Shown here: piece after piece, positions 7,898-49,772 of the stretch | How the letters are laid out: each line of letters opens with the position of its first letter | Position numbering within the stretch: position 1 is the stretch's first letter | Sequence record: NC_047776.2 | Strand: one strand, 5' to 3' | DNA length: 64,000 bases | Source of the DNA: Escherichia phage ESCO5 | Translations under genes and position numbers: made by a program | The notes under the pieces: generated by a model | What the model was told of the DNA's origin: nothing | What the model saw: the letters and a program-made list of their open reading frames with translations, nothing else | The model's database searches: none

Positions 7898-9886
7898 TTG
7901 TTAGAAATTAACGCCTCCAAAATTAGTAACGTGGTTACGTTTAAGGTGGACAAGAACAGTCTCAAGGAAGCAAAAGATGCCGTGTTGAGTGTTCAGAAGT
8001 TTGCAAATAAAATGCAACCCACTATGAACATGACCAAGTTTAGACAACAAATGAAAGAGATTGAGCGTGAACTTAAGAAAGCTCAAACTCAAAGTCAAAA
8101 ACCTATGCGAGCACCTACTCCCGCTGGAGCGGGTGCTCCTGTAGGCGGATCTGGCAGACCTAGAACTCCTAAAACCCCGCAAGGAAGAGAAGAAGAAAAA
8201 GCTCGTAAAGCTGCTGAACGCGAAGCTAAAGCAGCAGCACGTAGGGAAGACTTAGGTAATCTTCGTTTGCAGAACTTTAACTATCGAGCAAGAGCATTTA
8301 GTAAAGCCAGTCCTGGCGCTATGCAAGAAGCTAGAGACGTTATGGGTAAAGCTGTAGAGCAATACAAAAAGGGTGAAATAACTCTTCAACGTATGAACCA
8401 AGCTCTTGCTCACCAGTTAGATGCTTTACGCAGATCGCATCGTGAAAAGAATGCTGAAATAGAAGACGAGGTTCGTGGTCGCCGTCGTATTCGTAGAGAG
8501 CTAGAAGCAGAAGCTAAAACCCGTATACGTATGCGAAATCGTGAACTTAGAGATATAGAACGCAACCGTAAGCGTGAATTAGCTCAACAAAGACGTGATC
8601 GTGATCGTCGATATGGACAATTAAAAGAAGGTGCGGCAGGTCTTAATCCACGCATGATTGCATCCTCTTTGATCGGTGCTGGGTTATTTGCAGGGGGTTC
8701 TGTAGTTGGTAACACTTTGATGAATACTAACGAAAGGATTAAACTTGTAAGCCGTGGTGCTGAAAACGTTCAGACAAACGCCAACGCTATTTTGGCAATG
8801 ACAGCTTGGGGTGAACAGAACGGTGTAGACTCTGCAAATATTATTAAGTCAATAGATAATATTAAAGACGTTCGTGAACGTCTTGGTAATACAGTTTTAG
8901 CCTCAAAATGGAATGAGAAAGAAGGGAAGTGGAAAGGCGGTGATAATGGCATAAATGACATTATGAACTTGTTTGGATGGAATCCAGAACAGCTTAAACC
9001 TTTACAGAACGATCCTTTGGCTTTTATTCAGGCTACTGTTAATGAAGGTGAGCGTCGAGGTATGAACTCTGCTCAAATCGGGCGACTTCTTGAAAACCTT
9101 GGTGATGACCTTATGCACTACCAACGTATGTTTAGTAAAAACGGCGAAGGGTATAATGAAGTATTGAAAATGCTTCAAAGAACAGGTGCAACATTAACTC
9201 AAGAACAAATAGATGCTTCTAAAGAGTTTACTCGTTTTGCTGCAACAGTTCAGCTTGTAGGTCAAGGTATGCAGAACCATTTCTTAGAGGGTTTTGTGAA
9301 AGCCTTACCTAAAGATGATTCTTGGTTGGATAACGTTAAAGTGCTAGATCAGTTTGCCAAAGATTTAGGTGAAGAACTTGGTAAGACAACAGTTCAATTA
9401 GGAGGTTTTGCTAAAGAATTGGGAGATGGTTTCGGATCTTTTACCAATTGGCTTAAAGAGACATTCCCAGACACCTTCGGAGACAACACAGATCCTAATA
9501 AATCTATGGCACAAAAGGCATATGAGGCAACGCAAAGTGGAGACAGCAATCCTGTAGCAGATTGGTTGTACAATTTAACAGGTATTGATACACAAGATGT
9601 TGGTCGTATGTGGAGAGGAGAACAAACAAGGACACGTGCTTTTGGATTTGGTAATCCTCTTGAAGATTTACGTGAATCAGCCTATACACCTAACGTAAGT
9701 TTGGCTCGTAATCAACCTATTGTTGAGAATACGGTAGCAATACCAAGTGATCTTATCAAAGTTACGATCAGCCCTTCTTCAGAGTTTGGAAATATTCTTG
9801 ATGCAAGAATTCAAAATAGCGGAAATAGCATTTTCCAACGTTTATCTCTTTCAACTCTAAGTGGACAATCTAACACTGGTGGTTAA
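7898..9886 (+). CDS. tail tape measure protein
   Basis: 662 aa; TTG start with GAGGA RBS; Arg/Glu-rich coiled-coil region; hydrophobic segment MIASSLIGAGLFAGGSVVG; position after chaperones. Confidence 0.7.
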   Translation: MLEINASKISNVVTFKVDKNSLKEAKDAVLSVQKFANKMQPTMNMTKFRQQMKEIERELKKAQTQSQKPMRAPTPAGAGAPVGGSGRPRTPKTPQGREEEKARKAAEREAKAAARREDLGNLRLQNFNYRARAFSKASPGAMQEARDVMGKAVEQYKKGEITLQRMNQALAHQLDALRRSHREKNAEIEDEVRGRRRIRRELEAEAKTRIRMRNRELRDIERNRKRELAQQRRDRDRRYGQLKEGAAGLNPRMIASSLIGAGLFAGGSVVGNTLMNTNERIKLVSRGAENVQTNANAILAMTAWGEQNGVDSANIIKSIDNIKDVRERLGNTVLASKWNEKEGKWKGGDNGINDIMNLFGWNPEQLKPLQNDPLAFIQATVNEGERRGMNSAQIGRLLENLGDDLMHYQRMFSKNGEGYNEVLKMLQRTGATLTQEQIDASKEFTRFAATVQLVGQGMQNHFLEGFVKALPKDDSWLDNVKVLDQFAKDLGEELGKTTVQLGGFAKELGDGFGSFTNWLKETFPDTFGDNTDPNKSMAQKAYEATQSGDSNPVADWLYNLTGIDTQDVGRMWRGEQTRTRAFGFGNPLEDLRESAYTPNVSLARNQPIVENTVAIPSDLIKVTISPSSEFGNILDARIQNSGNSIFQRLSLSTLSGQSNTGG

Positions 9887-36671: not shown

Positions 36672-39600
36672 TCAATGACAGGATGCCCAGGAATTACCCA
36701 CGTCATATCCGGCAGTAAGCTGAACGTTAAGATTGTAAAATTCTCCAGCCTTAGTAACAGCTAAAGCAGCAAGTTCACCTGCCCGACTATAAGCTGTAAA
36801 CCATCCACCTTTGGGAGATTCATGAATGTTAGCCCAAATTTGCCCTGTCTCTTTTTCCTTATTATGCTTCCATTCTTCAACTTTAGCAAGGCATTCTTTA
36901 TCAATTTTCTTTTGTTCTTCAGGATCGTCTACTTTCTTCCAACCTAATGATTCAGGTGAAAACCATTTGAATTCTACAAGGTTACGAGAAACTTCAAGCT
37001 GGGCTTCATCGTGGTATGCAATCATTTGTTGCACGAAGTCTTTATTCTTCCAGTCATCTTTAAAGAAGTCAACACTTAGTCCTTCTTCTTCGATCATATC
37101 GTCATAAATAACCATTGCACGTTTAGCACAGATAACCCCACCACTTTGGAACAGAGAGTTAAGAATCGCGTGAGCAGAACGAGTAGGAACCTTACGACCG
37201 TCAATACCCAAAACATACTGTTTACCAGTCTTAACCCAGAAATCGTTTAAACGTTCTTTAAGACGCGCCAGTGGGAATGCAGCTTCCCAGAAAGCATCGA
37301 ACACCAGTTGCCCTGTAAACTTATCGCTACCAATTGTTTTAGCAACCTTGTCGGCTTGTGCACCATAGGTAATACCATACTTAACAGATTTAGCAGGACT
37401 ACGTTCAAATTTACGTCCAATAGTTTCAGTGATACGTTTTGCCATCATGGTATGAACATCGTTAGGCTTCTCTAACAAGAGAGCGTTACAGTATTCATGA
37501 GGCTCCGGTTCGTAGCGCCAACAGTTTCCTGTGATGGTAATGCAGTCTTTCTGACGCATGACCCACGTACCAAGTTCTGTTTGTGGACACCAAACATCCT
37601 CTACACCCCACTCTTCAATAGTCAAACTTTGAACAGGAATGTGAGAGCGGTTAGCCAATGTTACCACTTTTACTTTCTGCTCTTTTGTATTGAAAGCTAC
37701 AGAGATATTGCCTCCATGCACCAGGTACGAGGCAGTTAAAGCTGCTTCAAAAAGTTCACCTGGGTTCTGCGCCCAACGCCAAACAGGTTTTTGTTTATGT
37801 TCATGCCAGTAACCATCTGCAATCAAGAAACCTTCCAAGAAAGCTACACGCTCGGCATGAGACATATTAACTACACGCTCTACCCACGGAACATCCCATT
37901 TACCTTGTTGAACAGAAGTTAAACTATTTACCTGATCTTGTTCCATGTTAAATGGAGCATTACAAATAATATTATCTCCTGTGCAAAGCTCGGCAGTTGT
38001 TCTGACTTTAGGCACATAAGTATTCCCTTTACTACGGGTATTAACATACCAACGGTGATCTGCTGTTGCACGGTAAGTGTGTGATTTCCCTTTAATCTCA
38101 AACGTCTTACTATTTTTATAGAAGACCTTACCTTTTACTTTAGTCCATTCTTTCAGACCTGTTTCAGCATTGTACCCTAAAATCTCATCCCCTTCCTTCA
38201 GGTCGTGATATCCTACCCAACCTTTACGAGTCAAAGCTTGAGCATCCATCGGCACACAGTAATGCGACTCAATCTTTGCTTCCAAAGAGTCGAAGTCATA
38301 ACCGATCTGGAAATATTTAGGAACTTCTACACCAAACAAGTTACGCATCTCCCATCCAAACAAAGATGTGACACGAGGGATATTGGCTACAGACCTATGC
38401 TTCATACGAGAGGTTGCAGCATCACATGTAGCGGCTGGGGTAGGAATACGCCCATCTGCCCTTACTGCGGCTAAGAAACCTTTATCGTATTCTTGATCTT
38501 CTTCATCTTCTTCCCAATCAGCACCGCCACCTAAAATAGAGTTCCTACGATGCTTATACGTTAAGTATTCTACAATCTGAGTAGCATAAGGAAATTTCTC
38601 ACCCAAAGCTTGCAGGTTAGGACAGATTTCTTTTTCCTGACCTTTGGTAAAACATGGGTTAGTCAATACTTTAAGACCGCGACCTTTACCTTTTGCTATA
38701 CGCTCTTGAATCTTCCTTTCCAAGGTTTCCGGTGCGCACTCCAGATGATCACAACGGTCCTGACAAAAATTAGAAGATAAAGTTTGCTCAACGTAAGCTC
38801 GAATACCTTTCTGAAGTTCTTCCTCACTCTTTTTAATCTTGGTGCCAGATTTAAGAGTCAAATCTTTATCTTTATATTCCGATGGTACCCAACCTAATCC
38901 TACAAGCCAGTTTTTAATATGGGTTGTATCGTTCAATGTCGCAGGGATGTTAGGATCACACAGAGGCTCATCTGCTGCAACTGGCAGTTTCCACTCTTTC
39001 CCCAACATAACTAACCACCAATCGCCATCCCTCTCTTCCAAATGACCATCATGTTTTTTAGCAAAATTGATCATATGGTTAGTTGGTTCGAGGTTCTTTT
39101 TAATTTGCAATTTAGGCGGAATAAAAGCTTTAAGATAACCTTTTGTTGCTGGTTTAGGTGGCAAAATAGGCTCAACGAGTAAACGAAGACGCTCCATTTC
39201 TGCATCCAAAAAAGCAAGGTTCTCTTCTGCTTGCTTCATATTAAAAGCAAACCCACGGTGTTCCTGGCGCGTGATAATGTCTGCTACACGTTGTTCAAGT
39301 TCAAATGGACCTTCCCATTTATCATAATCACCCCATTCTTCCATAAGGTAGTTATATACGCTCGTATTGGCTTTGTTGTCATAGATACAGTAATAAAGCA
39401 TATCCGCAGCAAAAGTCTTAAATCGATCTTCTTCTGGAATCTCTTTACGGAAATCTATTTTTACATCACCACCTGCTTTTCGAGAAAGTGCTGCCAAGCT
39501 ATGTCCTGATTTGCCCTCAATCTTTCGATCTGGGTTTAACACTTTACTCAAAATCAAGGAGTCAATAAGTTTTACCTTATTTTTGCCCCACGTATTATAT

Positions 39601-40004
39601 TTAACACTGTAATCTAATCCATAAAACAGTTTTGTAGCCAACCAGTCGTAGTTGATACCGTTGTGAGCCACAGCCATTTCAACCAGATATTCAGGCTTGT
39701 CTTTAAAATAACCTTCATGATTAATAAAGTCTGGGAAATCTTTTAGTTGAAAATGCGTGTAATCTTGCGCCACATACTCTTTAAGAACATATGTATATTT
39801 ACCATCTGACTCTTCATAAGGACGCCCATCAAAGATGTATTTAGGGCCATCGTGGAAAGCTACTATTTCTCCTGTTTCATGGTTCTCTAAGACAATACAG
39901 TGCATTTGAAATGTGTCTTTGAGACGATAAGGACTAGCTAAATAATCAATAGTGTCATTATTCAACAATCCGTTTGCTTCAATATCCCATGTAAACTTAC
40001 TCAC
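36672..40004 (-). CDS. DNA polymerase, family A (T7 gp5-like), intein-containing
   Basis: 1110 aa; N-terminal exo motif WDIEANGL; motif A YDFDSLEAKI; motif B SPAKSVKYGITYGAQ; C-terminus ends ...SWASCH (T7: ...NWAICH). Confidence 0.9.
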   Translation of the reverse strand: MSKFTWDIEANGLLNNDTIDYLASPYRLKDTFQMHCIVLENHETGEIVAFHDGPKYIFDGRPYEESDGKYTYVLKEYVAQDYTHFQLKDFPDFINHEGYFKDKPEYLVEMAVAHNGINYDWLATKLFYGLDYSVKYNTWGKNKVKLIDSLILSKVLNPDRKIEGKSGHSLAALSRKAGGDVKIDFRKEIPEEDRFKTFAADMLYYCIYDNKANTSVYNYLMEEWGDYDKWEGPFELEQRVADIITRQEHRGFAFNMKQAEENLAFLDAEMERLRLLVEPILPPKPATKGYLKAFIPPKLQIKKNLEPTNHMINFAKKHDGHLEERDGDWWLVMLGKEWKLPVAADEPLCDPNIPATLNDTTHIKNWLVGLGWVPSEYKDKDLTLKSGTKIKKSEEELQKGIRAYVEQTLSSNFCQDRCDHLECAPETLERKIQERIAKGKGRGLKVLTNPCFTKGQEKEICPNLQALGEKFPYATQIVEYLTYKHRRNSILGGGADWEEDEEDQEYDKGFLAAVRADGRIPTPAATCDAATSRMKHRSVANIPRVTSLFGWEMRNLFGVEVPKYFQIGYDFDSLEAKIESHYCVPMDAQALTRKGWVGYHDLKEGDEILGYNAETGLKEWTKVKGKVFYKNSKTFEIKGKSHTYRATADHRWYVNTRSKGNTYVPKVRTTAELCTGDNIICNAPFNMEQDQVNSLTSVQQGKWDVPWVERVVNMSHAERVAFLEGFLIADGYWHEHKQKPVWRWAQNPGELFEAALTASYLVHGGNISVAFNTKEQKVKVVTLANRSHIPVQSLTIEEWGVEDVWCPQTELGTWVMRQKDCITITGNCWRYEPEPHEYCNALLLEKPNDVHTMMAKRITETIGRKFERSPAKSVKYGITYGAQADKVAKTIGSDKFTGQLVFDAFWEAAFPLARLKERLNDFWVKTGKQYVLGIDGRKVPTRSAHAILNSLFQSGGVICAKRAMVIYDDMIEEEGLSVDFFKDDWKNKDFVQQMIAYHDEAQLEVSRNLVEFKWFSPESLGWKKVDDPEEQKKIDKECLAKVEEWKHNKEKETGQIWANIHESPKGGWFTAYSRAGELAALAVTKAGEFYNLNVQLTAGYDVGNSWASCH
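37524..38258 (-). mobile_element. candidate intein with LAGLIDADG-type motif inserted in polymerase motif A
   Basis: Residues 583-827: starts with Cys (CVPMDAQAL), block B-like ATADHRWYV, LAGLIDADG-like AFLEGFLIADGY, ends ...ITGN followed by Cys; flanking extein aligns to T7 DASGLELRCLAHF / RFDNGEYAHEIL. Confidence 0.55.
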
Positions 40005-40798
40005 TATTCCTCCTTTCTAATGTTCTCCAGAACCCACTGAAGTTCTTTTAAACTTAAACTTCTTACTCCCGCAGTTTTACTAGCTTCAGCTTTAAGTAAC
40101 GGGTAAGCCTCAATGATACGCGTTTTAAGATCAGAAGTCAAGGCTTTTAAAAAATAGGTAGATGCTTCAGATAAAGAATCTTCTTCTGATAACACTTTAC
40201 CTGCACTTGCTCCCGCTCTCCTAACGGCTATATCGTAGTCTTTACTGTTACCTAATACGAATAGTCGATTCTCTCCTAAAACAACGGGAGAACGCTTCTC
40301 GTTGCGTTTAATCCATATCTGGAATACACAAGGAACATCCCAAGGTTCTCCATGAAGAATAAAAGATCCTTTTGGACATTCTTCTTCGTAAAGAAGATGC
40401 ATGTGGGGATTTAGTTTGTGTGCAAAAAAGATTTTTTGAAATGTGCGAGGCAAGATAAAACAAATACCACCTTCGTTATCCAACATTTCAGCACAATGGT
40501 TAAAGAACTTAATGGCAAGACTAGCATTTTTTCCAAACGGAGGATTACCGACAAAAGCAGTTACACTACCAACAGACTCAACAGATTGAGCTAAAAAATC
40601 TGCCTCAATACAATCTTCAAACTTAGGGTCAATATCAAAAGAAGTTATGTTTTTAAAACAAGAAGAGAAAGCTCCTTCTCCCGCAGATGGTTCTACGTAG
40701 TTAGCTTCCTCTCCAAAAATTTCTTTGATCTTATCACATAAGAACCCCGCATAAGCGGGGTTAGTGTAATATTGATCAAGTGTGTTCAACTTGCTCAA
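40004..40798 (-). CDS. N6-adenine-type (amino) methyltransferase, probable DNA MTase
   Basis: 264 aa; SAM-binding motif I VEPSAGEGAF and catalytic motif IV VGNPPFG in gamma-class order; stop overlaps polymerase start. Confidence 0.6.
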   Translation of the reverse strand: MSKLNTLDQYYTNPAYAGFLCDKIKEIFGEEANYVEPSAGEGAFSSCFKNITSFDIDPKFEDCIEADFLAQSVESVGSVTAFVGNPPFGKNASLAIKFFNHCAEMLDNEGGICFILPRTFQKIFFAHKLNPHMHLLYEEECPKGSFILHGEPWDVPCVFQIWIKRNEKRSPVVLGENRLFVLGNSKDYDIAVRRAGASAGKVLSEEDSLSEASTYFLKALTSDLKTRIIEAYPLLKAEASKTAGVRSLSLKELQWVLENIRKEE

Positions 40799-41304: not shown

Positions 41305-41333
41305 GTATTTTTAATAAAAGGGCCGAAGCCCTT
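41305..41333 (-). terminator. rho-independent terminator after primase-helicase gene
   Basis: On minus strand AAGGGC-uucg-GCCCUU followed by UUUAUUAAAAAU. Confidence 0.55.
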
Positions 41334-43110
41334 AATAATTGCTATCCGTAGGCAAATTAGCAGGATTGTTGAAATACTGCTCTTTGTCATGCAGAGTTGC
41401 AGTTCTAATGTCATAGTAAAACTGCCCTGCCGGACCAGTTTCCGAGAACTCACGGTTTTTTAGGATAAAGCAATGAGTCGTATTGCGTTCTACAGGGTCT
41501 TCAGCGGCTTTATCTCGTTCCAAAGCCAAGGTAATACCAGCACCTTTAGCCAAGAAACTACTACCCATTGCATCGTCCTCTGTTAAGTGTTCATTGCCAC
41601 CATTAGCCGATTTCTTAACGTGTGAGATGACGATAATAGTTATAGCATACTCTTTCATGATGCGCTTCAACCATGTTGCTAACTCTTCCTGGGCTTGAAC
41701 ATCCATACCAGAAAGCAAATCAGAATAAGGGTCGATAACAAGAATTGTTACTCCAAAATAGATGATCATCTCCAAAACTTTTTCTTTGATAGACTCCACA
41801 TCTGCTCCACGATCATCACACACATAAAAACGTGGTGATCCATCTTCTCTTTCGTAAAAATCCAGGATTTTTTCTTTATTCTCTTCCAAGATTTGAAATT
41901 TCTCTTCCGGTGTTTTCCTGTGTAGAGGAATATGCAGGAACGAGGACAACAGGTTACGAGAATATTTCTTATAAGTTGCTTCCAAGGACAGAATACCTAG
42001 GGTATGTTCTGGGTGCGCAACAATAATATGTTTGGTGATCTCGTTCACCATCAAAGTTTTACCGATACTGGTCTTTGCCAGGATGACTGTAATCTCTTCC
42101 TCTACTAAACCACCACCCAGCATATTTGCAGCAACACGCATAAAAGGAGGCAAGGTAATCATCTTGGATTCCAAGCATTCTAATGCAGCTTCATACAAGA
42201 CATTAGAAGCATAAACACCTGCTGGGGTGTATAGACGAGCACTCCAAAAAGCTTTTACGAAATCTTTTGCACGACCTTCTTCCAGATACTGATTGGCATC
42301 CTTAAGATCCATCTGCATACGATAGACTTTGTTACGAGGCAGCACCTTAACAATATTTTCAAATGCCTCATTACCTGCTTTGTCGTTATCCATGCAAACA
42401 ATAATCTTCTTAAATTTTTCAAAGAAAGGATATTGTGCCTGAACTTGTTTATACATACTGGTTTCACCAGTTGTGCCACTTACTACGGCTGGAAGCTCAT
42501 ATTTACTGTCCAAGTTTTCAGATAGCATTTGATAAGCTGCCAGAGCATCGTGTTCACCACCTGTAATTACAACAGTATGAGAACGGTCTGCAAAACGAAT
42601 TTGTCCAAAAAGATCTACATCTTTACCTACTTGACCAATAGGTTTACTGAAATCTTTAGGATGAATACGACGCTTAAAACCAACCAATTCTTTACCGATG
42701 GTAGTCGGATATAAACAACTTTCTACTACCATCTGATCTCCTTCCTGACGGTATTCATAACGAACACCATAGAAAGATGAAACTTTTTCTTTAATGCCTC
42801 GATAACCACGTGGGTTGGTTGATGTTTCTTGAACAATTTTACGATGAATCTGTTTATTAAATTCCGAACCCACAATCTCCTCCTCTTCTTCTAAAACTTC
42901 ACCATTTTCTCGTAACCATTCTACGCTAGGAATAGTGTATTCACACGCAAAGCACTTAGCACCTTTATGCTCTCCATTAGAATCTAATCCGTAAACCATC
43001 AGGTTATTACGAGAGCGATCCTTGCCATTTTTCATGCAGCGCGGACAACCTGTATGTCCTTCCTTGCTAAGATCAACATCAAATCCATATTTAGTTATAA
43101 TGTGCGACAC
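41332..43110 (-). CDS. bifunctional DNA primase-helicase (T7 gp4-like)
   Basis: 592 aa; N-terminal zinc ribbon CPRC...CFAC; TOPRIM-like IIVCMDNDKAGNEA; Walker A ILAKTSIGKT and Walker B LVIDPYSDL in C-terminal helicase half. Confidence 0.85.
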   Translation of the reverse strand: MSHIITKYGFDVDLSKEGHTGCPRCMKNGKDRSRNNLMVYGLDSNGEHKGAKCFACEYTIPSVEWLRENGEVLEEEEEIVGSEFNKQIHRKIVQETSTNPRGYRGIKEKVSSFYGVRYEYRQEGDQMVVESCLYPTTIGKELVGFKRRIHPKDFSKPIGQVGKDVDLFGQIRFADRSHTVVITGGEHDALAAYQMLSENLDSKYELPAVVSGTTGETSMYKQVQAQYPFFEKFKKIIVCMDNDKAGNEAFENIVKVLPRNKVYRMQMDLKDANQYLEEGRAKDFVKAFWSARLYTPAGVYASNVLYEAALECLESKMITLPPFMRVAANMLGGGLVEEEITVILAKTSIGKTLMVNEITKHIIVAHPEHTLGILSLEATYKKYSRNLLSSFLHIPLHRKTPEEKFQILEENKEKILDFYEREDGSPRFYVCDDRGADVESIKEKVLEMIIYFGVTILVIDPYSDLLSGMDVQAQEELATWLKRIMKEYAITIIVISHVKKSANGGNEHLTEDDAMGSSFLAKGAGITLALERDKAAEDPVERNTTHCFILKNREFSETGPAGQFYYDIRTATLHDKEQYFNNPANLPTDSNY

Positions 43111-43122
43111 TTTGTTCTCCTG

Positions 43123-43401
43123 TTAAAATGGTTCGTTAGTCTCCATCATATATTCTGCTTCTAGTTCTTCCATGTGCTTTCTAAATTGGAAAGCAATTTC
43201 TGCTACAGTTACATTTAAATCTTTTTCAAAAACTTCTGTAGATCCTTCATAAAAACGAATACCGTCAATTAAAAGCCCTCCGTGGTAATCCCAATCGCTT
43301 TCACGAGAAAGTGGATTAGGTTCTTCATAATAGTAATCCACCTCCACAACCAAGGCTTTCCCGTTACGAGTGGTGTATTCAAAATCAAAAGTGTTAATCA
43401 T
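43123..43401 (-). CDS. hypothetical protein
   Basis: 92 aa ORF. Confidence 0.5.
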   Translation of the reverse strand: MINTFDFEYTTRNGKALVVEVDYYYEEPNPLSRESDWDYHGGLLIDGIRFYEGSTEVFEKDLNVTVAEIAFQFRKHMEELEAEYMMETNEPF

Positions 43402-44345
43402 TATAGCTCCTCAAATAAAAGTCTACGACGCTCATTCAACACATCAATGTGATAATGAGTCCTGACATACTTAGCTAATGCTAATCCTTTCTCCATGCAA
43501 ACATCGGGAGCACTTAATAAGTATTCCGTAATATCTTTCCACTCGGAAGGTGTTTCAGCAAAGAATAACAAATCTTTAAACTCTTGTGTATGATAATTCT
43601 CACGAGGAGAGCAGATTAAAGGTAAACCCTTAGCACCTGCCTCAAGAATTTTAAGATTGCTTTTTGCATTATTAAACACGTTATCGATCAATGGTGCAAG
43701 ACTGATTTGATGACCATCGTAAGATTCCATGTAGTAGGCATATGGTCTTACACCTTCATAAACACAAGTTGGTGCTACATTTTCCCTGATTAAAGACCAT
43801 TCACGACTACTTAAAACTTCAGAATCCCTACGAAAACCACATATTGTAAGATCTTTACCAAAATCGGGCAAGATAGCCAAATCTTGTTTATGTGTTTCAC
43901 TTCCAGCCCAGACTAATGGAGTTTTGGAGTAGCGATCACGGGTCAACACAAATTGACCTTCATCGTAAGGAAGTCCATTAGGGATTATGTGCACATTATC
44001 ATTGTATTGTGAAAGTTCAACTTGCAAGGCAGGTGTCGTAGTTGTAACAAGATCACTGTGCTCTAAAAACCATTTTAAATGTTCACGAATACCTGATTCA
44101 AAAATACCTTCTAACATGTGTCCTTTTGGAATAACTAAAGAGTCATCCAAATCCATAACCATTTTAAAGCCCAGGTTTTTAAGGGCTAAAAAGCCCTCTT
44201 TACCTTTTGTTGGCACTCCGTTAAAAACGAAAACGTTGTGTTTAGGTTGTGAAGAGAACTGCCTTGAGTAAGGCAGCACTACCCTATGGAAATCGCAGAC
44301 ACTATAATTGATTCCGTTACGATTGTCAAGAATTATTTGTCCCAT
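43401..44345 (-). CDS. putative GT-B fold glycosyltransferase (paralog 1)
   Basis: 314 aa; C-terminal NAKSNLKILEAGAKGLPLICS resembles GT-B donor-binding motif; paralogous to adjacent gene. Confidence 0.5.
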   Translation of the reverse strand: MGQIILDNRNGINYSVCDFHRVVLPYSRQFSSQPKHNVFVFNGVPTKGKEGFLALKNLGFKMVMDLDDSLVIPKGHMLEGIFESGIREHLKWFLEHSDLVTTTTPALQVELSQYNDNVHIIPNGLPYDEGQFVLTRDRYSKTPLVWAGSETHKQDLAILPDFGKDLTICGFRRDSEVLSSREWSLIRENVAPTCVYEGVRPYAYYMESYDGHQISLAPLIDNVFNNAKSNLKILEAGAKGLPLICSPRENYHTQEFKDLLFFAETPSEWKDITEYLLSAPDVCMEKGLALAKYVRTHYHIDVLNERRRLLFEEL

Positions 44346-44352
44346 ACTTCAC

Positions 44353-45300
44353 CTACAAACTTTCAATAACCTGGCGTCGCAATTCGTTTGCATCTGCCAG
44401 ATTATAATGTGTTCGAACATGTTCCGCTAAGAACAAGCCGCGATCTTCCCGATAGTTCGGATTGCGAAGAAGCTTAACAATTTCGTAATGCCATTCAGCT
44501 TTATTCTCTGCGTAAGCAACAGCGCGAGCATCTACAGGGTTAAAATAAGGTAATACCTTAGAACAAACAATCGGAATACCTTTTGCCCCAGCTTCAAGGA
44601 TTTTGAGATTACTTTTACAATTATTAAAATCATTGTCTACCAAAGGAGCTATAGCAATAGCATGACTTTCGTAAACACTCATGTAATTATCTAAATCTTT
44701 TACAGCAGCTTTATATTTGGCGTTTGGTAAATTTCTACGGATCTTAATCCACTCTTGCCCTGTGATACTCTGCGATGCTTCATATCCTGCAATAGTAAGA
44801 AGTTCATCATCGAAAGTATTAGAGACTAGTCGTAAATCGGGTTCGTGACTAGCACCGCCAGCCCATACAACAGGGGTACCGGATGAACGATCATTTGACA
44901 AAGTGAATTGTCCGCTATCAAAAGGAAGTGCATTTCGGATCACAACAACATTCCTATTTAAGTGACGGATCTTATATGCCAAATATTCCGTAGTCACAAT
45001 GACCACATCGGCAAGCTTAACCATAGCTACAATAGCATGAGTGTTTGACTCATATAAACTTGCTAAATAATGTTCTGGATTAAGTTGGTAGAAATCATCT
45101 AAATCTACAACAATCTTAACACCTTGACGTTTCAGTGACAGAACATATTCTGCCCCTTTAGAATGAATACGGTTAAACACGACAACATCTTTCTTAGGCT
45201 GAAAATTATTGTTGTTAAATGGTATAACAATACGATGATAATCACAACCACTGTGAGGTTTTGCATCAATTTTCAGTTTAGTCCATTTTTTATTTGACAT
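44353..45300 (-). CDS. putative GT-B fold glycosyltransferase (paralog 2)
   Basis: Start moved to ATG with GAGGAGG RBS, giving 315 aa, matching paralog length; shares CDYHRIVIPF / CDFHRVVLPY and KSNLKILEAGAKGIPIVCS motifs. Confidence 0.5.
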   Translation of the reverse strand: MSNKKWTKLKIDAKPHSGCDYHRIVIPFNNNNFQPKKDVVVFNRIHSKGAEYVLSLKRQGVKIVVDLDDFYQLNPEHYLASLYESNTHAIVAMVKLADVVIVTTEYLAYKIRHLNRNVVVIRNALPFDSGQFTLSNDRSSGTPVVWAGGASHEPDLRLVSNTFDDELLTIAGYEASQSITGQEWIKIRRNLPNAKYKAAVKDLDNYMSVYESHAIAIAPLVDNDFNNCKSNLKILEAGAKGIPIVCSKVLPYFNPVDARAVAYAENKAEWHYEIVKLLRNPNYREDRGLFLAEHVRTHYNLADANELRRQVIESL

Positions 45301-45973
45301 GTGCCAGTGCCTCCTCATAAGAAATTCGGATTTTCCCATTTTTAATATCTTCTAAAGACGCTTTATATTCTTCCCAGTTAATGCCAATAGCAACTTCTTT
45401 CTCTTCTTTTGTCAGATTAGCAAAAGGCATAGGATTGTTTCCAAAAACATCGTCTGGGTGGATATAAGCCATGATACGAAGTGGACAAGGTATTGCCTGA
45501 ATGCCCTGATTCAAACCAGCAGCTTTCAAACGGTGTACCCATTCAGCATCTTCAAAACCATAGCCGTGAGTGTAAGGGCGGAAATAACCCATCTTCTCAA
45601 CAACGGCACGAGAATACATTGCAAATTGACACATTGCAAGTTCCCAGAGAATAACTTCTCCTTTACTCCCAACAACTTTATCTTTGAAATACTCCGGCAT
45701 ACCAAAGAAATCCCATCCTCCAGAGACAGCTTGATCTACAAAATATGTTTCCCATCCCTCCATGATTGGGTAGCAATCGTCGTCAAAAATAAACCAATAA
45801 TCATAACCTTCTTCATAAAACTGGTGCATAAGTTCATTCCTGGCGTAAGCTACACCTTTACGATCTGGATCGTTGAATACTCGAAAATCTGCATGTGGAT
45901 CTGTTACAAGGTAGTCTTTAAGTGGACGGACACCTACAGTGATAACACCCACTCCGATTTTAATATTTTCCAT
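45290..45973 (-). CDS. putative GT-A fold glycosyltransferase
   Basis: 227 aa; DxD-type motif in WFIFDDDCYP and GYGFEDAEWVHRL motif typical of family-2-like transferases. Confidence 0.5.
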   Translation of the reverse strand: MENIKIGVGVITVGVRPLKDYLVTDPHADFRVFNDPDRKGVAYARNELMHQFYEEGYDYWFIFDDDCYPIMEGWETYFVDQAVSGGWDFFGMPEYFKDKVVGSKGEVILWELAMCQFAMYSRAVVEKMGYFRPYTHGYGFEDAEWVHRLKAAGLNQGIQAIPCPLRIMAYIHPDDVFGNNPMPFANLTKEEKEVAIGINWEEYKASLEDIKNGKIRISYEEALAHVK

Positions 45974-45981
45974 TTTCTCTC

Positions 45982-46545
45982 CTAAATAGTTTTACTGTGA
46001 TCGTGACAGTGTAATAAATGATGTATAGACCGTTGAGGATTTGTTTGACCTAATCTGTAAATGTGAAACAGATACATTCCCCGCATCAATCCTAACCTCT
46101 TTCCTTTTTCATGTAAAGTGCGAGAGAAAATTAAGTCGAATTGGATAGATTTTTCTTCGAAAGGAATTTCATTCCACAATGATTTTCTAAAAAGCAAAAA
46201 GAAACCTGCCAGAGGTGTTCCGAAAGGAACTTCTTCAACACTCACTTTATGATATTCTCTTGCAATCTTAGCATATTCTATATGGTTTAGAATATCTGGA
46301 TCATCGTTAATTTGGTTAGAGAAAAGCTGATAACCACTACCTAACCTGTTACAAGTTGCACCTATTACATCAAAAGGCGGGTTTGACATAACAAGCTCTT
46401 CAAGCATAGATGGTTGATCAGGCAGGAGGAACATTGTATCGGTATCTCTTAAGCACACCCAACTATCATCTGGAAGAACGGCAATAGCTTCATTGATAGC
46501 CTTGCCGATATTTCCTGTCAGATAGGGAGTAATATAATAAATCAT
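45982..46545 (-). CDS. putative nucleotide-sugar transferase-like protein
   Basis: 187 aa; N-terminal Rossmann-like MIYYITPY...IGKAINEAI and CLRDTDTMF (DxD-like). Confidence 0.35.
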   Translation of the reverse strand: MIYYITPYLTGNIGKAINEAIAVLPDDSWVCLRDTDTMFLLPDQPSMLEELVMSNPPFDVIGATCNRLGSGYQLFSNQINDDPDILNHIEYAKIAREYHKVSVEEVPFGTPLAGFFLLFRKSLWNEIPFEEKSIQFDLIFSRTLHEKGKRLGLMRGMYLFHIYRLGQTNPQRSIHHLLHCHDHSKTI

Positions 46546-47246: not shown

Positions 47247-47768
47247 TTAACTCCCCTTTGGTAGATAGAAACCATGCACTTTATCTCGATAAACAAGACG
47301 CATATCACGCTCCCAGTGTGTCCTTATATTCCGTTTCTTGAAGTATAGAGCACCTTTAGTAACATCTAAAACAGACCGCAATTCAGGAAAATGTTTCTCT
47401 AAATAAAGTAAACGCTCCGCTATTGCTTTTGCTTCCTGCCATTTATCTTTCTCTGTCACGTTAAAAGTTTTCGCATATGAGAATTGCCCTTTCTGGAACA
47501 AGACTCCCTTGACTGTGTTAGGGAAGTAGGCATCATTTCTTCTGTTGATTACCACATTCCCAACGGCATTCATTCCTTTTTTACCCAGACCGCGACCTTC
47601 TGCGTAAATTGCACAAGCTAATAGAATTTTATCATTATATTGCTTTGTACATTTGTGAACTACTTTAGCGGTTTTTACGTTTGCAGCTTCGGCTTTCGCC
47701 ACAACAGGTGTAAATGTAAAAGCAGTTAAGGATAGTAACGCAACTGTTACAAAGTTTTTTATCAGCAA
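47247..47768 (-). CDS. secreted cell-wall hydrolase (SleB/CwlJ-like)
   Basis: 173 aa; TTG start with AGGAGG RBS; N-terminal signal peptide ending VVAKAEA; core ILLACAIYAEGRG...AVGNVVINRR...FPNTVKGVLFQKGQFS matches SleB-type hydrolase family. Confidence 0.75.
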   Translation of the reverse strand: MLIKNFVTVALLSLTAFTFTPVVAKAEAANVKTAKVVHKCTKQYNDKILLACAIYAEGRGLGKKGMNAVGNVVINRRNDAYFPNTVKGVLFQKGQFSYAKTFNVTEKDKWQEAKAIAERLLYLEKHFPELRSVLDVTKGALYFKKRNIRTHWERDMRLVYRDKVHGFYLPKGS

Positions 47769-47864: not shown

Positions 47865-48467
47865 TTATGGACATTCATACCATTCTTTTTTACCACCGAA
47901 GGCCATTACCACATCGCAAATATCCAGACCAGCTTTACCTACACCATATGCTTTCAGCTTCCATTCTCCATCTTCACGAACCAGGGAAGCCACGTGGCAG
48001 ATTGTGTTGCCAGCTACTTCAGGAGCCAGGAAGTCAAAATCCAGAATTTCCACATTACGCTCGGAGTCGAAGATTTTAAGCATACCTTCAGAAGCATGAC
48101 CAAAACGTTTCAGACCTGTATCATCATCAATAGTCAGAACAAAGGCAATCTCTTGTGCATCAGGAGAGATTTTAGCCAGAGTAATATCAATCTGCTCCAT
48201 GCTGCCAGTTCCATCACGAACATCGTCACCAGCAAAGGTAGAACGTTCAGGATCAAACTTATTAGCATAGCAAACCAGATGACGTGCAGACAGCATTTCA
48301 GGATTGCCAGCGGCATTGTGACGACAAACCAGTGCACTTACATCCAGATCCAGTTTAGAATCAGATTTCCAAGAGAACTCCAGGCGTAGTTCTTTCAGAG
48401 CCGGAGCAACTTTCTTCAGGGAAATTTTTTCGCTAGAGCCTTTTTTCAGGGAAATTTTATCAGTCAT
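47865..48467 (-). CDS. terD: TerD-domain protein
   Basis: 200 aa; aligns along its length to E. coli TerD: ISLKKG..ISLKK start, LDLDVSALV, GDDVRDGTG, IAFVLTIDD, GEWKLKAYGVGKAGL. Confidence 0.9.
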   Translation of the reverse strand: MTDKISLKKGSSEKISLKKVAPALKELRLEFSWKSDSKLDLDVSALVCRHNAAGNPEMLSARHLVCYANKFDPERSTFAGDDVRDGTGSMEQIDITLAKISPDAQEIAFVLTIDDDTGLKRFGHASEGMLKIFDSERNVEILDFDFLAPEVAGNTICHVASLVREDGEWKLKAYGVGKAGLDICDVVMAFGGKKEWYECP

Positions 48468-48752: not shown

Positions 48753-48981
48753 TTCTTCCTCCTAATATTATCTCCGGTTTATATATACGAAGAATTATAG
48801 CATTTTCATTTTCTTTGTCAACCCATTCTTCATAATCAGGCCATACATGAATCTCTACTCTACTTACAATATCTTCCATTCGCACAGTCCCAATGAAATA
48901 CTCTTTGAGACTGCACATAATGAAAGCTTCTCTCTCGCGCCAATAATTTTCTATGACTTGAGAGGCAAGCTCGTCGATCAT
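48733..48981 (-). CDS. hypothetical protein
   Basis: 82 aa ORF between vWA gene and paralog B. Confidence 0.45.
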   Translation of the reverse strand: MIDELASQVIENYWREREAFIMCSLKEYFIGTVRMEDIVSRVEIHVWPDYEEWVDKENENAIILRIYKPEIILGGRSVKLRN

Positions 48982-49772
48982 TTTTTAGCACCTACTTTAA
49001 CAACCCACTCTCCGAACTCTTCAGATAAGAGTTTGTCATAAAGCTCTGAATCTGTCAAGTCTAAATCTTTAATGCCAATAAAACCAACATTATCATAAGC
49101 ATTTGCCAGTTCTTTCAGGAAGCCAAACTTCTCATTACCAACGCCAACCATGAACCAATAAATAGGTTTATTCTTATTCTCTTCAATAAGACGACGAACA
49201 GCACTAGGATCACCATTCTCACCATCCGTCTGGAAGAATACAACACCAGGGGTAACGTCAGCACCTGGTTCAGACACAGCTACAACCTTTTCACGCTCTA
49301 CAGATACTGTTTCAGTTTTACCAAGCAGACGATTAAAGAAGCCTTTCTTTGGAGCCTCTTCTTGTACCACTTGTTTAGTGGTAATATATTTGGTAACAGT
49401 GCCAAAATACTCATCGTAGATATCTGCCATTACAGGGGCGTAATTTGTTCCACCTCCGATACGAACATTACGCATACATTTACCAACATAGTCATCGTAA
49501 ACGTCTGCTGTTGCTGGAGTAAGCTCTTGGGAACTCGTATTGAAGGCCCACATATCAATTTGTTGATTATCGTCGAACAGCATACCAAAAGGAAGCAGTT
49601 TACCTACAAAATCACTCACTACCCCACTAGAATATAGACCATGCATACTACCAGAAATATCTAGAGCACATGCTACACGAAGAACAATCTTACCTTCATT
49701 CAGGTTCTTATTCTTTTTCAGAGAGAAAGCAAGGTTTTCTTGACGTTTTTTCAGGCTGATTTTATCGGACAT
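48978..49772 (-). CDS. vWA-domain protein (TerY-like)
   Basis: 264 aa; MIDAS motif in VLRVACALDISGSMHG; GGGTNYAPVM; N-terminus MSDKISLKK resembles TerD start. Confidence 0.7.
   Translation of the reverse strand: MSDKISLKKRQENLAFSLKKNKNLNEGKIVLRVACALDISGSMHGLYSSGVVSDFVGKLLPFGMLFDDNQQIDMWAFNTSSQELTPATADVYDDYVGKCMRNVRIGGGTNYAPVMADIYDEYFGTVTKYITTKQVVQEEAPKKGFFNRLLGKTETVSVEREKVVAVSEPGADVTPGVVFFQTDGENGDPSAVRRLIEENKNKPIYWFMVGVGNEKFGFLKELANAYDNVGFIGIKDLDLTDSELYDKLLSEEFGEWVVKVGAKK

Follow-up and report, generated by a model that had tools for sequence, protein, structure and literature searches.

The closest described systems to the locus reported here are found in mycobacteriophages, in which glycosyltransferases (GTs) such as Che8 gp110, Corndog gp38, and those of Myrna glycosylate the capsid and tail-tube proteins of the phage itself (PMC12363180). 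Che8 has three GTs (gp108–gp110), a small gene, and an HNH gene at the cos-proximal end, while in Corndog a methyltransferase (gp35) and three GTs (gp36–gp38) are located between the unannotated head-region genes gp32–gp34 and the gene for the major head protein. We describe here four consecutive GT genes at positions 43401–46545 of a 64,000-nucleotide stretch (hereafter, the window) of Escherichia phage ESCO5 (NC_047776.2). The four genes constitute a distinct phage cassette of Leloir GTs. The acceptor is probably not DNA, and the glycan probably contains rhamnose. We propose, tentatively and with somewhat less than even confidence, that the enzymes assemble a short, rhamnose-containing glycan on proteins of the virion. 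The four genes are named GT1–GT4 below, whereas "GT4-like" and "GT2/GT7-like" refer to enzyme families. The features are as follows.

45982–46545, minus strand: GT4, 187 amino acids (aa), predicted minimal GT-A glycosyltransferase, gene no. 1 of the cassette.
45290–45973, minus strand: GT3, 227 aa, predicted GT2/GT7-like GT-A glycosyltransferase, one half of the conserved core pair.
44353–45300, minus strand: GT2, 315 aa from the RefSeq start (the open reading frame (ORF) reaches 45339), predicted GT4-like GT-B enzyme, the conserved core GT-B.
43401–44345, minus strand: GT1, 314 aa, predicted GT-B paralogue of GT2.
43123–43401, minus strand: ORF of 92 aa with an ATGA overlap with GT1 that indicates translational coupling; given for context and not assigned to the system.

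The four genes are real and conserved. GT4 and GT3 are separated by 8 nucleotides, GT3 and GT2 overlap by 11, and GT2 and GT1 are separated by 7, with the stop codon of GT1 overlapping the start of the 92-aa ORF. A promoter and terminator scan found no terminator-like site on the minus strand inside the cluster, and the promoter-consensus matches from the scan were uninformative on expression timing. The genome belongs to the genus Phapecoctavirus (Stephanstirmvirinae), a group of ~150-kb lytic myoviruses of Escherichia coli. The region of ~4 kb is 98–99.8% identical in nucleotide sequence to 63 of 69 matching phage records, the Phapecoctavirus ones including ukendt, ESCO25, ESCO13, and phAPEC8-type phages, and 60–80% identical to the other six, which come from more distant relatives. 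All four GT genes are kept in 69 of the 69 records. The cluster is also conserved in Justusliebigvirus (phi92 genes 163–166; BASEL phages JohannJBalmer and PaulScherrer) at 66–77% amino-acid identity, and no match was attributable to Vequintavirus among the matches listed and the summary tallies (140 records). Comparison with the Justusliebigvirus orthologues indicates strong purifying selection on all four genes, the proportion of nonsynonymous differences (pN) being 0.15–0.24 with saturated synonymous sites. As annotation, the observation is thus no novelty: RefSeq already labels the four genes "glycosyltransferase" in ukendt, ESCO13, and other genomes. The 92-aa ORF matches no family and has no counterpart in the temperate-phage cassettes described later; in Klebsiella phage 05F01, the gene after the GT-B one is weakly homologous to it (32% identity, 6e-9).

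GT1 and GT2 are paralogues sharing 41% identity over 303 aa (E 7e-76), and sequence comparison predicts both to be GT4-like GT-B enzymes. All four proteins match glycosyltransferase-labelled PHROGs families over the full length (E 1e-78 to 1e-149), PHROG 7162 being matched end to end by both GT1 and GT2 (6.8e-149 for GT2). None of the four reaches a Pfam gathering cut-off, and an NCBIfam search of all four gave nothing. GT1 scores 24.7 bits with Glyco_trans_1_2 (cut-off 25), and GT2 scores 22.6 and 20.6 bits with Glyco_trans_1_4 and Glyco_trans_1_2 (cut-offs 27 and 25). Most homologues of these GT-B proteins carry a precomputed PF13524 match, and distant ones PF00534. The profile of the family (29 members) matches TreT (6e-4), PglA (0.017), and BshA (0.06) in the PDB over the last 80 residues. 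These matches are GT4-family enzymes and are made through the C-terminal donor domain. The invariant residues of the C-terminal block, which reads K228-S-N-L-K232-I-L-E235-A-G-A-K-G, are kept in both paralogues, and the E-x7-E-type motif is a variant in which the second Glu is nearly invariant and the first position is Lys. The invariant signature of the N-terminal (acceptor) domain, H20-R21, P25, D65-x-D67-D68, and H76, is likewise kept in both and has no match in any solved protein. GT1 retains every invariant residue of the family (R21, P25, D67, D68, K228, and K232). An architecture of two Rossmann domains would agree with the lengths of 314–315 aa and with the N- and C-terminal blocks, which are conserved separately. 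The isoelectric point is 5.7 (acidic) for GT1, 8.5 (mildly basic) for GT2, 4.9 for GT3, and 6.0 for GT4. No hydrophobic segment is found in the four proteins; the maximum 19-residue Kyte–Doolittle mean is 0.8–1.65, from which no transmembrane segment is predicted.

GT3 and GT4 were modelled, because sequence and profile searches gave no Pfam-significant relative and no sequence relative in the PDB for either. Each structure model has the GT-A fold with a DxD metal/nucleotide-sugar motif, so that GT3 is classed as a predicted GT2/GT7-like GT-A enzyme and GT4 as a predicted minimal GT-A enzyme. In GT3, the motifs are the invariant D64-D65-D66 ("FIFDDDCY") and "YGFED". In GT4, they are an N-terminal strand and loop, "ITPY..G.IGK.IN", and the invariant D34-x-D36 ("LRDTDT"). 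The scores of GT3 with Glycos_transf_2 and Glyco_transf_7C (13.2 and 14.4 bits) are below the gathering scores (23.3 and 23). An exhaustive profile search collected 968 representative relatives of GT3; among 136 that were scanned, 59 matched Glyco_transf_7C, 43 Glycos_transf_2, and 18, weakly, TAGT. The structural neighbours of GT3 and GT4 include the capsid or fibril GTs A64R of PBCV-1 and R655/R699 of mimivirus.

The original prediction for the window had placed four consecutive GT-like genes at 43401–46545, between a primase-helicase gene and an accessory island. Four minus-strand ORFs lie at exactly these coordinates, and the flanks agree, with the primase-helicase at 41332–43110 and an island of TerD and vWA-TerF genes from 47865. 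The two GT-B-like proteins that it described as paralogous are GT1 and GT2, in whose translations the motifs CDFHRVV / CDYHRIV and KSNLKILEAGAKGLP / ..GIP can be read. The GT-A-like protein with FDDDCY and GYGFED is GT3, in which both motifs are present and the fold is borne out by the model, and the fourth, Rossmann/DxD-like protein corresponds to GT4. Fold prediction, which had been named as a possible refutation of the GT identity, confirms glycosyltransferases instead.

The distribution of the cassette should be noted, since its parts differ in how widely they occur. In 19 of 27 viral loci, a GT3 homologue stands next to a GT2 homologue. A prophage of Serratia sp. M24T3 has the same GT4-GT3-GT2 order (identities of 41, 36, and 51%), and Klebsiella phage 05F01 and contig L028, both distant Stephanstirmvirinae, have GT4, GT3, and one GT-B only. 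Lambdoid, P22-like, and Pseudomonas prophage contigs have GT3 and GT2 only. The single GT-B of every other lineage is nearer to GT2 (34–54%) than to GT1 (31–40%). The adjacency of the pair and the closeness of the single GT-B to GT2 suggest that the GT3+GT2 pair is the ancient, horizontally mobile unit. GT4 is a frequent accessory of the cassette; its position is variable in contig L032, and Cellulophaga phages have it as a fusion with a TOD1-like GT domain. GT1 is absent from Klebsiella phage 05F01, L028, and all temperate-phage cassettes, and is a duplicate confined to the Phapecoctavirus/Justusliebigvirus lineage. A search of 100,044 species genomes gave no cassette homologue in bacterial polysaccharide loci, and every bacterial match that could be recognised was prophage-like. 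The lambdoid GT3-GT2 cassette had no DNA match in 5,426 complete E. coli genomes or in the phage collection. No small partner gene is conserved beside the cassette across the phage types. A functional tie to the Ter island was considered and rejected, since the island does not accompany the cassette outside Stephanstirmvirinae.

A candidate donor pathway is encoded outside the window. The genes for RmlB-A-C-D, which produce deoxythymidine diphosphate (dTDP)-L-rhamnose, are located beside those for glutaredoxin, NrdAB, and ThyX (69571–72849 in ukendt, NC_052661.1; 19571–22849 in locus L004). In ukendt, all four proteins pass the NCBIfam equivalog cut-offs (RmlA 465/361, RmlB 432/365, RmlC 226/156, and RmlD 237/224 bits), and in the nearest record, B15, RmlA–D are all full length and intact. 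The rml cluster is complete in 44 of the 69 records. In about 25 of the 69 (anhysbys, ZCKP1, Mt1B1_P17, nepoznato, and others), a deletion of ~1.9 kb has removed rmlA and rmlB, and rmlC and rmlD are kept. In the biosynthesis of enterobacterial common antigen (ECA) of E. coli, RffH and RffG produce dTDP-4-keto-6-deoxyglucose. Because the host pathway gives this intermediate, RmlC and RmlD would be the minimal addition needed for dTDP-L-rhamnose in any E. coli, and the loss of rmlAB with retention of rmlCD would fit selection for rhamnose supply. Inside the cassette of contig L028, GT4 and GT3 have between them a dTDP-glucose-4,6-dehydratase-like gene, which physically ties the cassette to 6-deoxyhexose chemistry. 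The neighbouring ThyX (77837–78835 in ukendt; 27837–28835 in L004) is the only thymidylate-synthase-like gene of the genus; it is unusually long (332 aa), and its match to Pfam Thy1 is weak and partial (5e-8).

Outside Stephanstirmvirinae, the cassette is almost always located in the late region beside packaging or head genes. A gene for the small or large terminase subunit (TerS, TerL), the portal, or the major capsid protein (MCP) is found within 5 kb in at least 15 of 22 phage and prophage loci, detection being seed-based and the count therefore a lower bound. In the Serratia prophage, the order is holins, endolysin, spanin, three small genes, GT4-GT3-GT2, a small gene, HNH, TerS, TerL, and capsid. 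In the lambdoid contigs, Q is followed at a distance by HicAB, GT3-GT2, holin, and lysozyme, with the terminase further on, and in L008 GT2 and GT3 stand between TerS, TerL and the portal. Contig L035, whose structural proteins are homologous to those of ESCO5, has a tail-repeat protein, GT2-GT3, HNH, TerL, portal, and MCP. Tailoring enzymes accompany the GTs in several members of this group. A prophage of Flavihumibacter has a TylF-type sugar O-methyltransferase and a GT-B upstream of an SPP1-type portal; a preceding 528-aa ORF is TerL by guess only, with no family match. In a Chitinophaga prophage, genes for a GT-B, a hexapeptide acetyltransferase, and a GT3-like protein lie shortly before TerL. 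In contig L015, TerS is followed by a distant GT-B, a GT2-type and a PLOD-type GT, and a DegT aminotransferase, and Cellulophaga phi12:1 has a methyltransferase and a two-domain GT between the portal/minor-capsid and protease/MCP genes. The cassette is not tied to one type of head module, as Portal_Mu, Phage_portal_3, HK97-type, and SPP1-type portals all occur. In Pseudomonas prophages, the order is a Big_2 Ig-like protein, GT3-GT2, a phage metallopeptidase, TerS, TerL, and portal. In one of these (Pseudomonas sp. T1-3-2, L046), the Big_2 protein directly upstream of GT3-GT2 and the terminase genes has 213 aa (8628–9269); it may be a decoration protein and a possible acceptor. A gene labelled "DNA methyltransferase" by RefSeq right after the portal (101011–101490 in ukendt; 2012–2491 in locus L012) was considered as a sugar O-methyltransferase like Corndog gp35, and was rejected because it encodes an XkdF-type prohead serine protease (Pfam 1.4e-11); the label is probably a mis-annotation.

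By analogy with the mycobacteriophage loci, this context suggests virion glycosylation. The four GTs would be soluble, cytoplasmic, nucleotide-sugar-dependent enzymes that act in sequence to give a short glycan of ~3–4 sugars. GT3, an inverting-type GT-A enzyme, and GT2, a GT4-like GT-B enzyme, would form the ancient mobile core pair, with the minimal GT-A enzyme GT4 as an accessory and GT1, the recent GT-B duplicate, probably adding one further sugar. dTDP-L-rhamnose from the rmlBACD genes of the phage is most likely used in at least one step, and RmlC and RmlD alone would be enough where the host ECA pathway gives dTDP-4-keto-6-deoxyglucose. The acceptor is most likely one or more phage structural proteins, so that virions would be glycosylated post-translationally in the infected cytoplasm in a manner functionally like that of Che8 and Corndog. 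Several observations weigh against this proposal. The ESCO5 cassette is not in the structural module but in a leftward block with the endolysin, primase-helicase, and DNA polymerase genes. Many of the loci in the seed-based context count are related to one another, and because the carriers differ in head-module type, no common acceptor protein is evident. Their context is equally compatible with lysogenic-conversion genes, since lysis- and cos-adjacent sites are also classical "moron" sites. The rml genes and the cassette are linked by co-occurrence only and are ~70 kb apart. No homology to the GTs of Che8 (gp108–gp110) or Corndog (gp36–gp38) is detected (hmmsearch ~0–9 bits, hhalign probability 0.2–0.5%), and the resemblance to the mycobacteriophage loci is therefore functional and architectural, not familial. 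In the literature searched, we found no report of glycosylated virions among phages of Gram-negative hosts, and no functional work on these genes or on virion glycosylation in coliphages.

GTs in a replication module are by default assumed to serve DNA hypermodification, and the original prediction likewise favoured glycosylation of hypermodified bases against restriction. Whether virions are glycosylated or the envelope is remodelled, the present finding corrects this assumption; bulk virion DNA is probably not the acceptor. The absence of a hydroxymethylase, noted originally for the window, holds for the whole genome. In phmmer searches against every ORF of at least 60 aa in the genome, neither T4 gp42, the deoxycytidine monophosphate hydroxymethylase of the ThyA family, nor T4 beta-glucosyltransferase (b-gt) gave a match at E ≤ 10, and the annotation of all 150 kb holds, of the thymidylate-synthase kind, ThyX only. 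No TET/JBP domain was found in the proteins around the annotated "Dcm" gene, to which the scan was confined (Pfam gave Sir2 and DUFs only). Homology of the GT-B family to b-gt was rejected at an hhalign probability of 1.2%; GT1 and GT2 match neither the alpha-glucosyltransferase (a-gt) nor the b-gt families in PHROGs, the comparison with a-gt being confined to that search. Membership of GT3 in TAGT (PF20691) was also rejected. The score is 19.2 bits against 27.5 and covers residues 33–68 (36 aa) around the DxD motif, the relatives are mostly GT2/GT7C-like, and when the viral structure library is searched with the GT3 model, generic GT2-like proteins come ahead of TAGT proteins, which take ranks 26 and 33. 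Published digests point away from restriction-resistant virion DNA, and the literature searched gave no nucleoside mass-spectrometry data. HincII gave restriction fragment length polymorphism patterns from five Phapecoctavirus phages, including ESCO25, and from three Justusliebigvirus phages (PMC10269720), and over the GT region ESCO25 shares 99.6% identity with the window. The enzyme failed to cut only ESCO10, ESCO47, and ESCO58, the latter two being named as Dhakavirus and Tequatrovirus (PMC10269720); we take the three to be the Tevenvirinae of that study, the genus of ESCO10 being presumed. According to PMC8594841, Vequintavirinae and phi92-like relatives, although they have "a putative dTDP glycosylation machinery", are "exceptionally susceptible" to restriction-modification. 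The phi92-like phages of BASEL have both the orthologous four-GT cluster and rmlA, and are also among the targets of a defence system that hits restriction-sensitive phages. Three studies noted the rhamnose and GT genes and guessed at DNA modification, yet observed restriction sensitivity (PMC8594841, PMC7552041, PMC10844046). It is still conceivable that a modified base receives rhamnose or another sugar from the GTs, perhaps so sparsely or sequence-specifically that the enzymes tried are not blocked. The cluster adjoins genes for the primase-helicase, an N6-methyltransferase-like protein, and DNA polymerase, the rml genes sit among those of nucleotide metabolism (Nrd, ThyX, glutaredoxin), and the ThyX is atypical. 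GT3 and its orthologues weakly match TAGT and T-even beta-glucosyl-HMC-alpha-GT, and rhamnosylated bases have been the subject of speculation (PMC7552041, PMC10844046). On the other side, the cassette occurs also in lambdoid/HK97-like temperate phages, which presumably use host deoxynucleoside triphosphate pools, and the sugar O-methyl- and acetyltransferases that accompany it suggest complex glycans. We consider this reading very unlikely. That the acceptor had been left open in the original prediction was right.

Remodelling of the host envelope is the main rival to virion glycosylation, though rather unlikely in our judgement. The soluble GTs would act at the inner membrane face on an undecaprenyl diphosphate (Und-PP)-linked intermediate, such as Und-PP-N-acetylglucosamine, the primer shared by ECA and O-antigen, and build or alter a rhamnose-containing unit. 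Structures of the lipopolysaccharide (LPS), ECA, or capsule that serve these phages as receptors would thereby be changed or depleted, resulting in superinfection exclusion, fewer progeny lost to debris, or, for temperate carriers, serotype conversion. A GT4-like GT-B, a GT2-like GT-A, and Rml enzymes are the canonical toolkit for a repeat unit of O-antigen, ECA, or capsular polysaccharide, and as enzymes they would suit this reading no less than virion glycosylation. The nearest sequence or structure matches include PglA, TarP/TarS, RmlT, WrtF, and AvpGT, the last annotated as a PglI-like Und-PP-glycan beta-1,3-glucosyltransferase. The mildly basic core GT-B, GT2, resembles many peripheral-membrane GT-Bs in this respect, the ECA precursor pool would feed the phage RmlC and RmlD, and ECA and the LPS core are receptors of these phages (PMC8594841). 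PHROGs places all four families in the category "moron, auxiliary metabolic gene and host takeover", and the temperate-phage cassettes occupy classical moron sites, either in the Q–lysis interval or after the lysis genes. However, the placement between terminase and portal or capsid in Bacteroidota prophages, and on the TerL side in L035, is atypical for morons. No priming phosphoglycosyltransferase, flippase, polymerase, or membrane protein accompanies the cassette in the loci examined, bacterial polysaccharide loci hold no homologue as described above, and a strictly lytic infection leaves little time for changes to the outer surface. Another type of acceptor, namely a host or non-structural phage protein (as in arginine glycosylation of the EarP or NleB type), a lipid, or a small molecule (giving a glycolipid, or neutralising a host signalling or defence metabolite), is unlikely. 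In its favour, the N-terminal signature of the GT-B is unmatched among solved proteins, one homologue carries the automatic label "diacylglycerol glucosyltransferase", and the cluster adjoins the Ter stress-response island in Stephanstirmvirinae. That island, however, stays behind when the cassette occurs elsewhere. Three or four different GTs with tailoring enzymes point to an oligosaccharide, not to a single regulatory sugar, and the dedicated rhamnose supply suggests a bulk product.

Some features in the surroundings of the cassette are also described. A SleB/Hydrolase_2-type cell-wall hydrolase gene (47247–47768, minus strand) is located three small genes upstream of GT4, and a second lysozyme of the genus, of the T4 type, adjoins the rml genes (68648–69148 in ukendt). 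The GT cassettes of two temperate phages also abut lysis cassettes, which may be a coincidence. The tellurite-resistance-type island just upstream of the endolysin/GT block comprises TerD (47865–48467, minus strand) and vWA-TerF (48978–49772, minus strand), with TelA and TerC further along in related genomes, and is conserved in Stephanstirmvirinae. A sigma-70 promoter that matches the consensus perfectly (TTGACA-16 nt-TATAAT, with the TG of an extended −10 element; 48794–48821, minus strand) stands upstream of the small ORFs preceding the TerD gene. On the other side of the cassette, a 264-aa ORF with "GNPPFG" (40004–40798, minus strand), labelled as a putative N6-adenine DNA methyltransferase in ukendt, has no Pfam match at E ≤ 0.001. 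The family-A DNA polymerase gene (36672–40004, minus strand) has an intein-like insertion at residues ~582–826, which starts with "CVPMDAQ", ends with "...ITGN|C", and holds a LAGLIDADG-like "FLEGFLIADGY"; Pfam detects the polymerase domain alone. The polymerase has 1110 aa here, 1189 aa in ukendt, and 865 aa, without the insert, in ESCO13. The insert of ukendt differs from the present one, since overall identity is just 72.7%. At 99.8%, "UNVERIFIED: Campylobacter phage B15" is nearest among public records; its host label is doubtful because it is one of five "Campylobacter" records within two genera of E. coli phages.

The genes and their generic annotation were already known, and their role has been a matter of speculation in the literature (PMC7552041, PMC10844046). 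What is new is that GT3 and GT4 are confirmed at the level of fold, together with the mobile GT3+GT2 core, the pattern of rmlAB loss with rmlCD retention, the collected evidence against a DNA acceptor, and the head-proximal context pointing to virion glycosylation. It is possible, though doubtful, that the cassette represents the first virion-protein glycosylation system of phages with Gram-negative hosts. Its mobile GT-A/GT-B pair, joined by accessory GTs and tailoring enzymes, would have evolved independently of the actinobacteriophage system and spread through phages of Enterobacterales, Pseudomonas, and Bacteroidota, and in Stephanstirmvirinae it would place a rhamnose-containing oligosaccharide, made from the phage-encoded donor pathway, on capsid, tail, or fibre proteins. 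Phapecoctavirus and Justusliebigvirus are among the coliphages with the broadest host ranges and are used in therapy and biocontrol cocktails. If their virions are glycosylated, the mycobacteriophage phenomenon would extend to phages of Gram-negative hosts, and antibody recognition, stability, or interactions with host glycans of therapeutic broad-host-range coliphages could be affected. Virion glycosylation would then be directly relevant to phage pharmacology because it alters antibody recognition in mycobacteriophages, and deletion of the four genes would provide a simple genetic handle. If ECA or LPS is remodelled instead, the cassette would represent a new receptor-masking strategy of a lytic phage.

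The cassette shares features with several known systems. Like the DNA GTs of T-even phages (a-gt, b-gt, and beta-glucosyl-HMC-alpha-GT) and TAGT, it consists of phage-encoded Leloir GTs near replication genes with both GT-A and GT-B folds, and GT3 has weak local similarity to them around the DxD motif. It differs in that no hydroxymethylase was found in the genome and no TET partner around the "Dcm" gene, the homology is not significant, and DNA of the genus is restriction-sensitive. The GTs of bacterial O-antigen, ECA, and capsule loci with RmlABCD are the closest sequence and structure neighbours, and also combine GT-A and GT-B enzymes with dTDP-rhamnose synthesis. Contrarily, the searches made located the cassette in phages and prophages only, and never with Wzx, Wzy, or initiating transferases. 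The GtrABC serotype-conversion modules of temperate Enterobacterales phages are likewise phage-borne sugar transferases, acting on host surface glycans. The Gtr proteins are integral membrane proteins that act on a bactoprenol-linked sugar, and their genes adjoin int/att, whereas the cassette has lysis or packaging genes nearby and its proteins are without a hydrophobic segment. The giant viruses PBCV-1 and mimivirus use rhamnose. The likeness to their GTs (A64R; R655/R699) is one of fold only, common to many GT-A enzymes, and they are eukaryotic viruses. In Che8 and Corndog, three consecutive phage GTs of ~200–390 aa, with or without a sugar methyltransferase, encode soluble cytoplasmic enzymes, as the cassette is predicted to do. 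The cos-proximal architecture of Che8, before HNH and terminase, is like that of the Serratia prophage cassette, and the position of the Corndog genes inside the head module is like that in Cellulophaga phi12:1 and the Flavihumibacter prophage. The ESCO5 cassette differs from both in its replication-side block, its Gram-negative host, and its phage-encoded rhamnose pathway.

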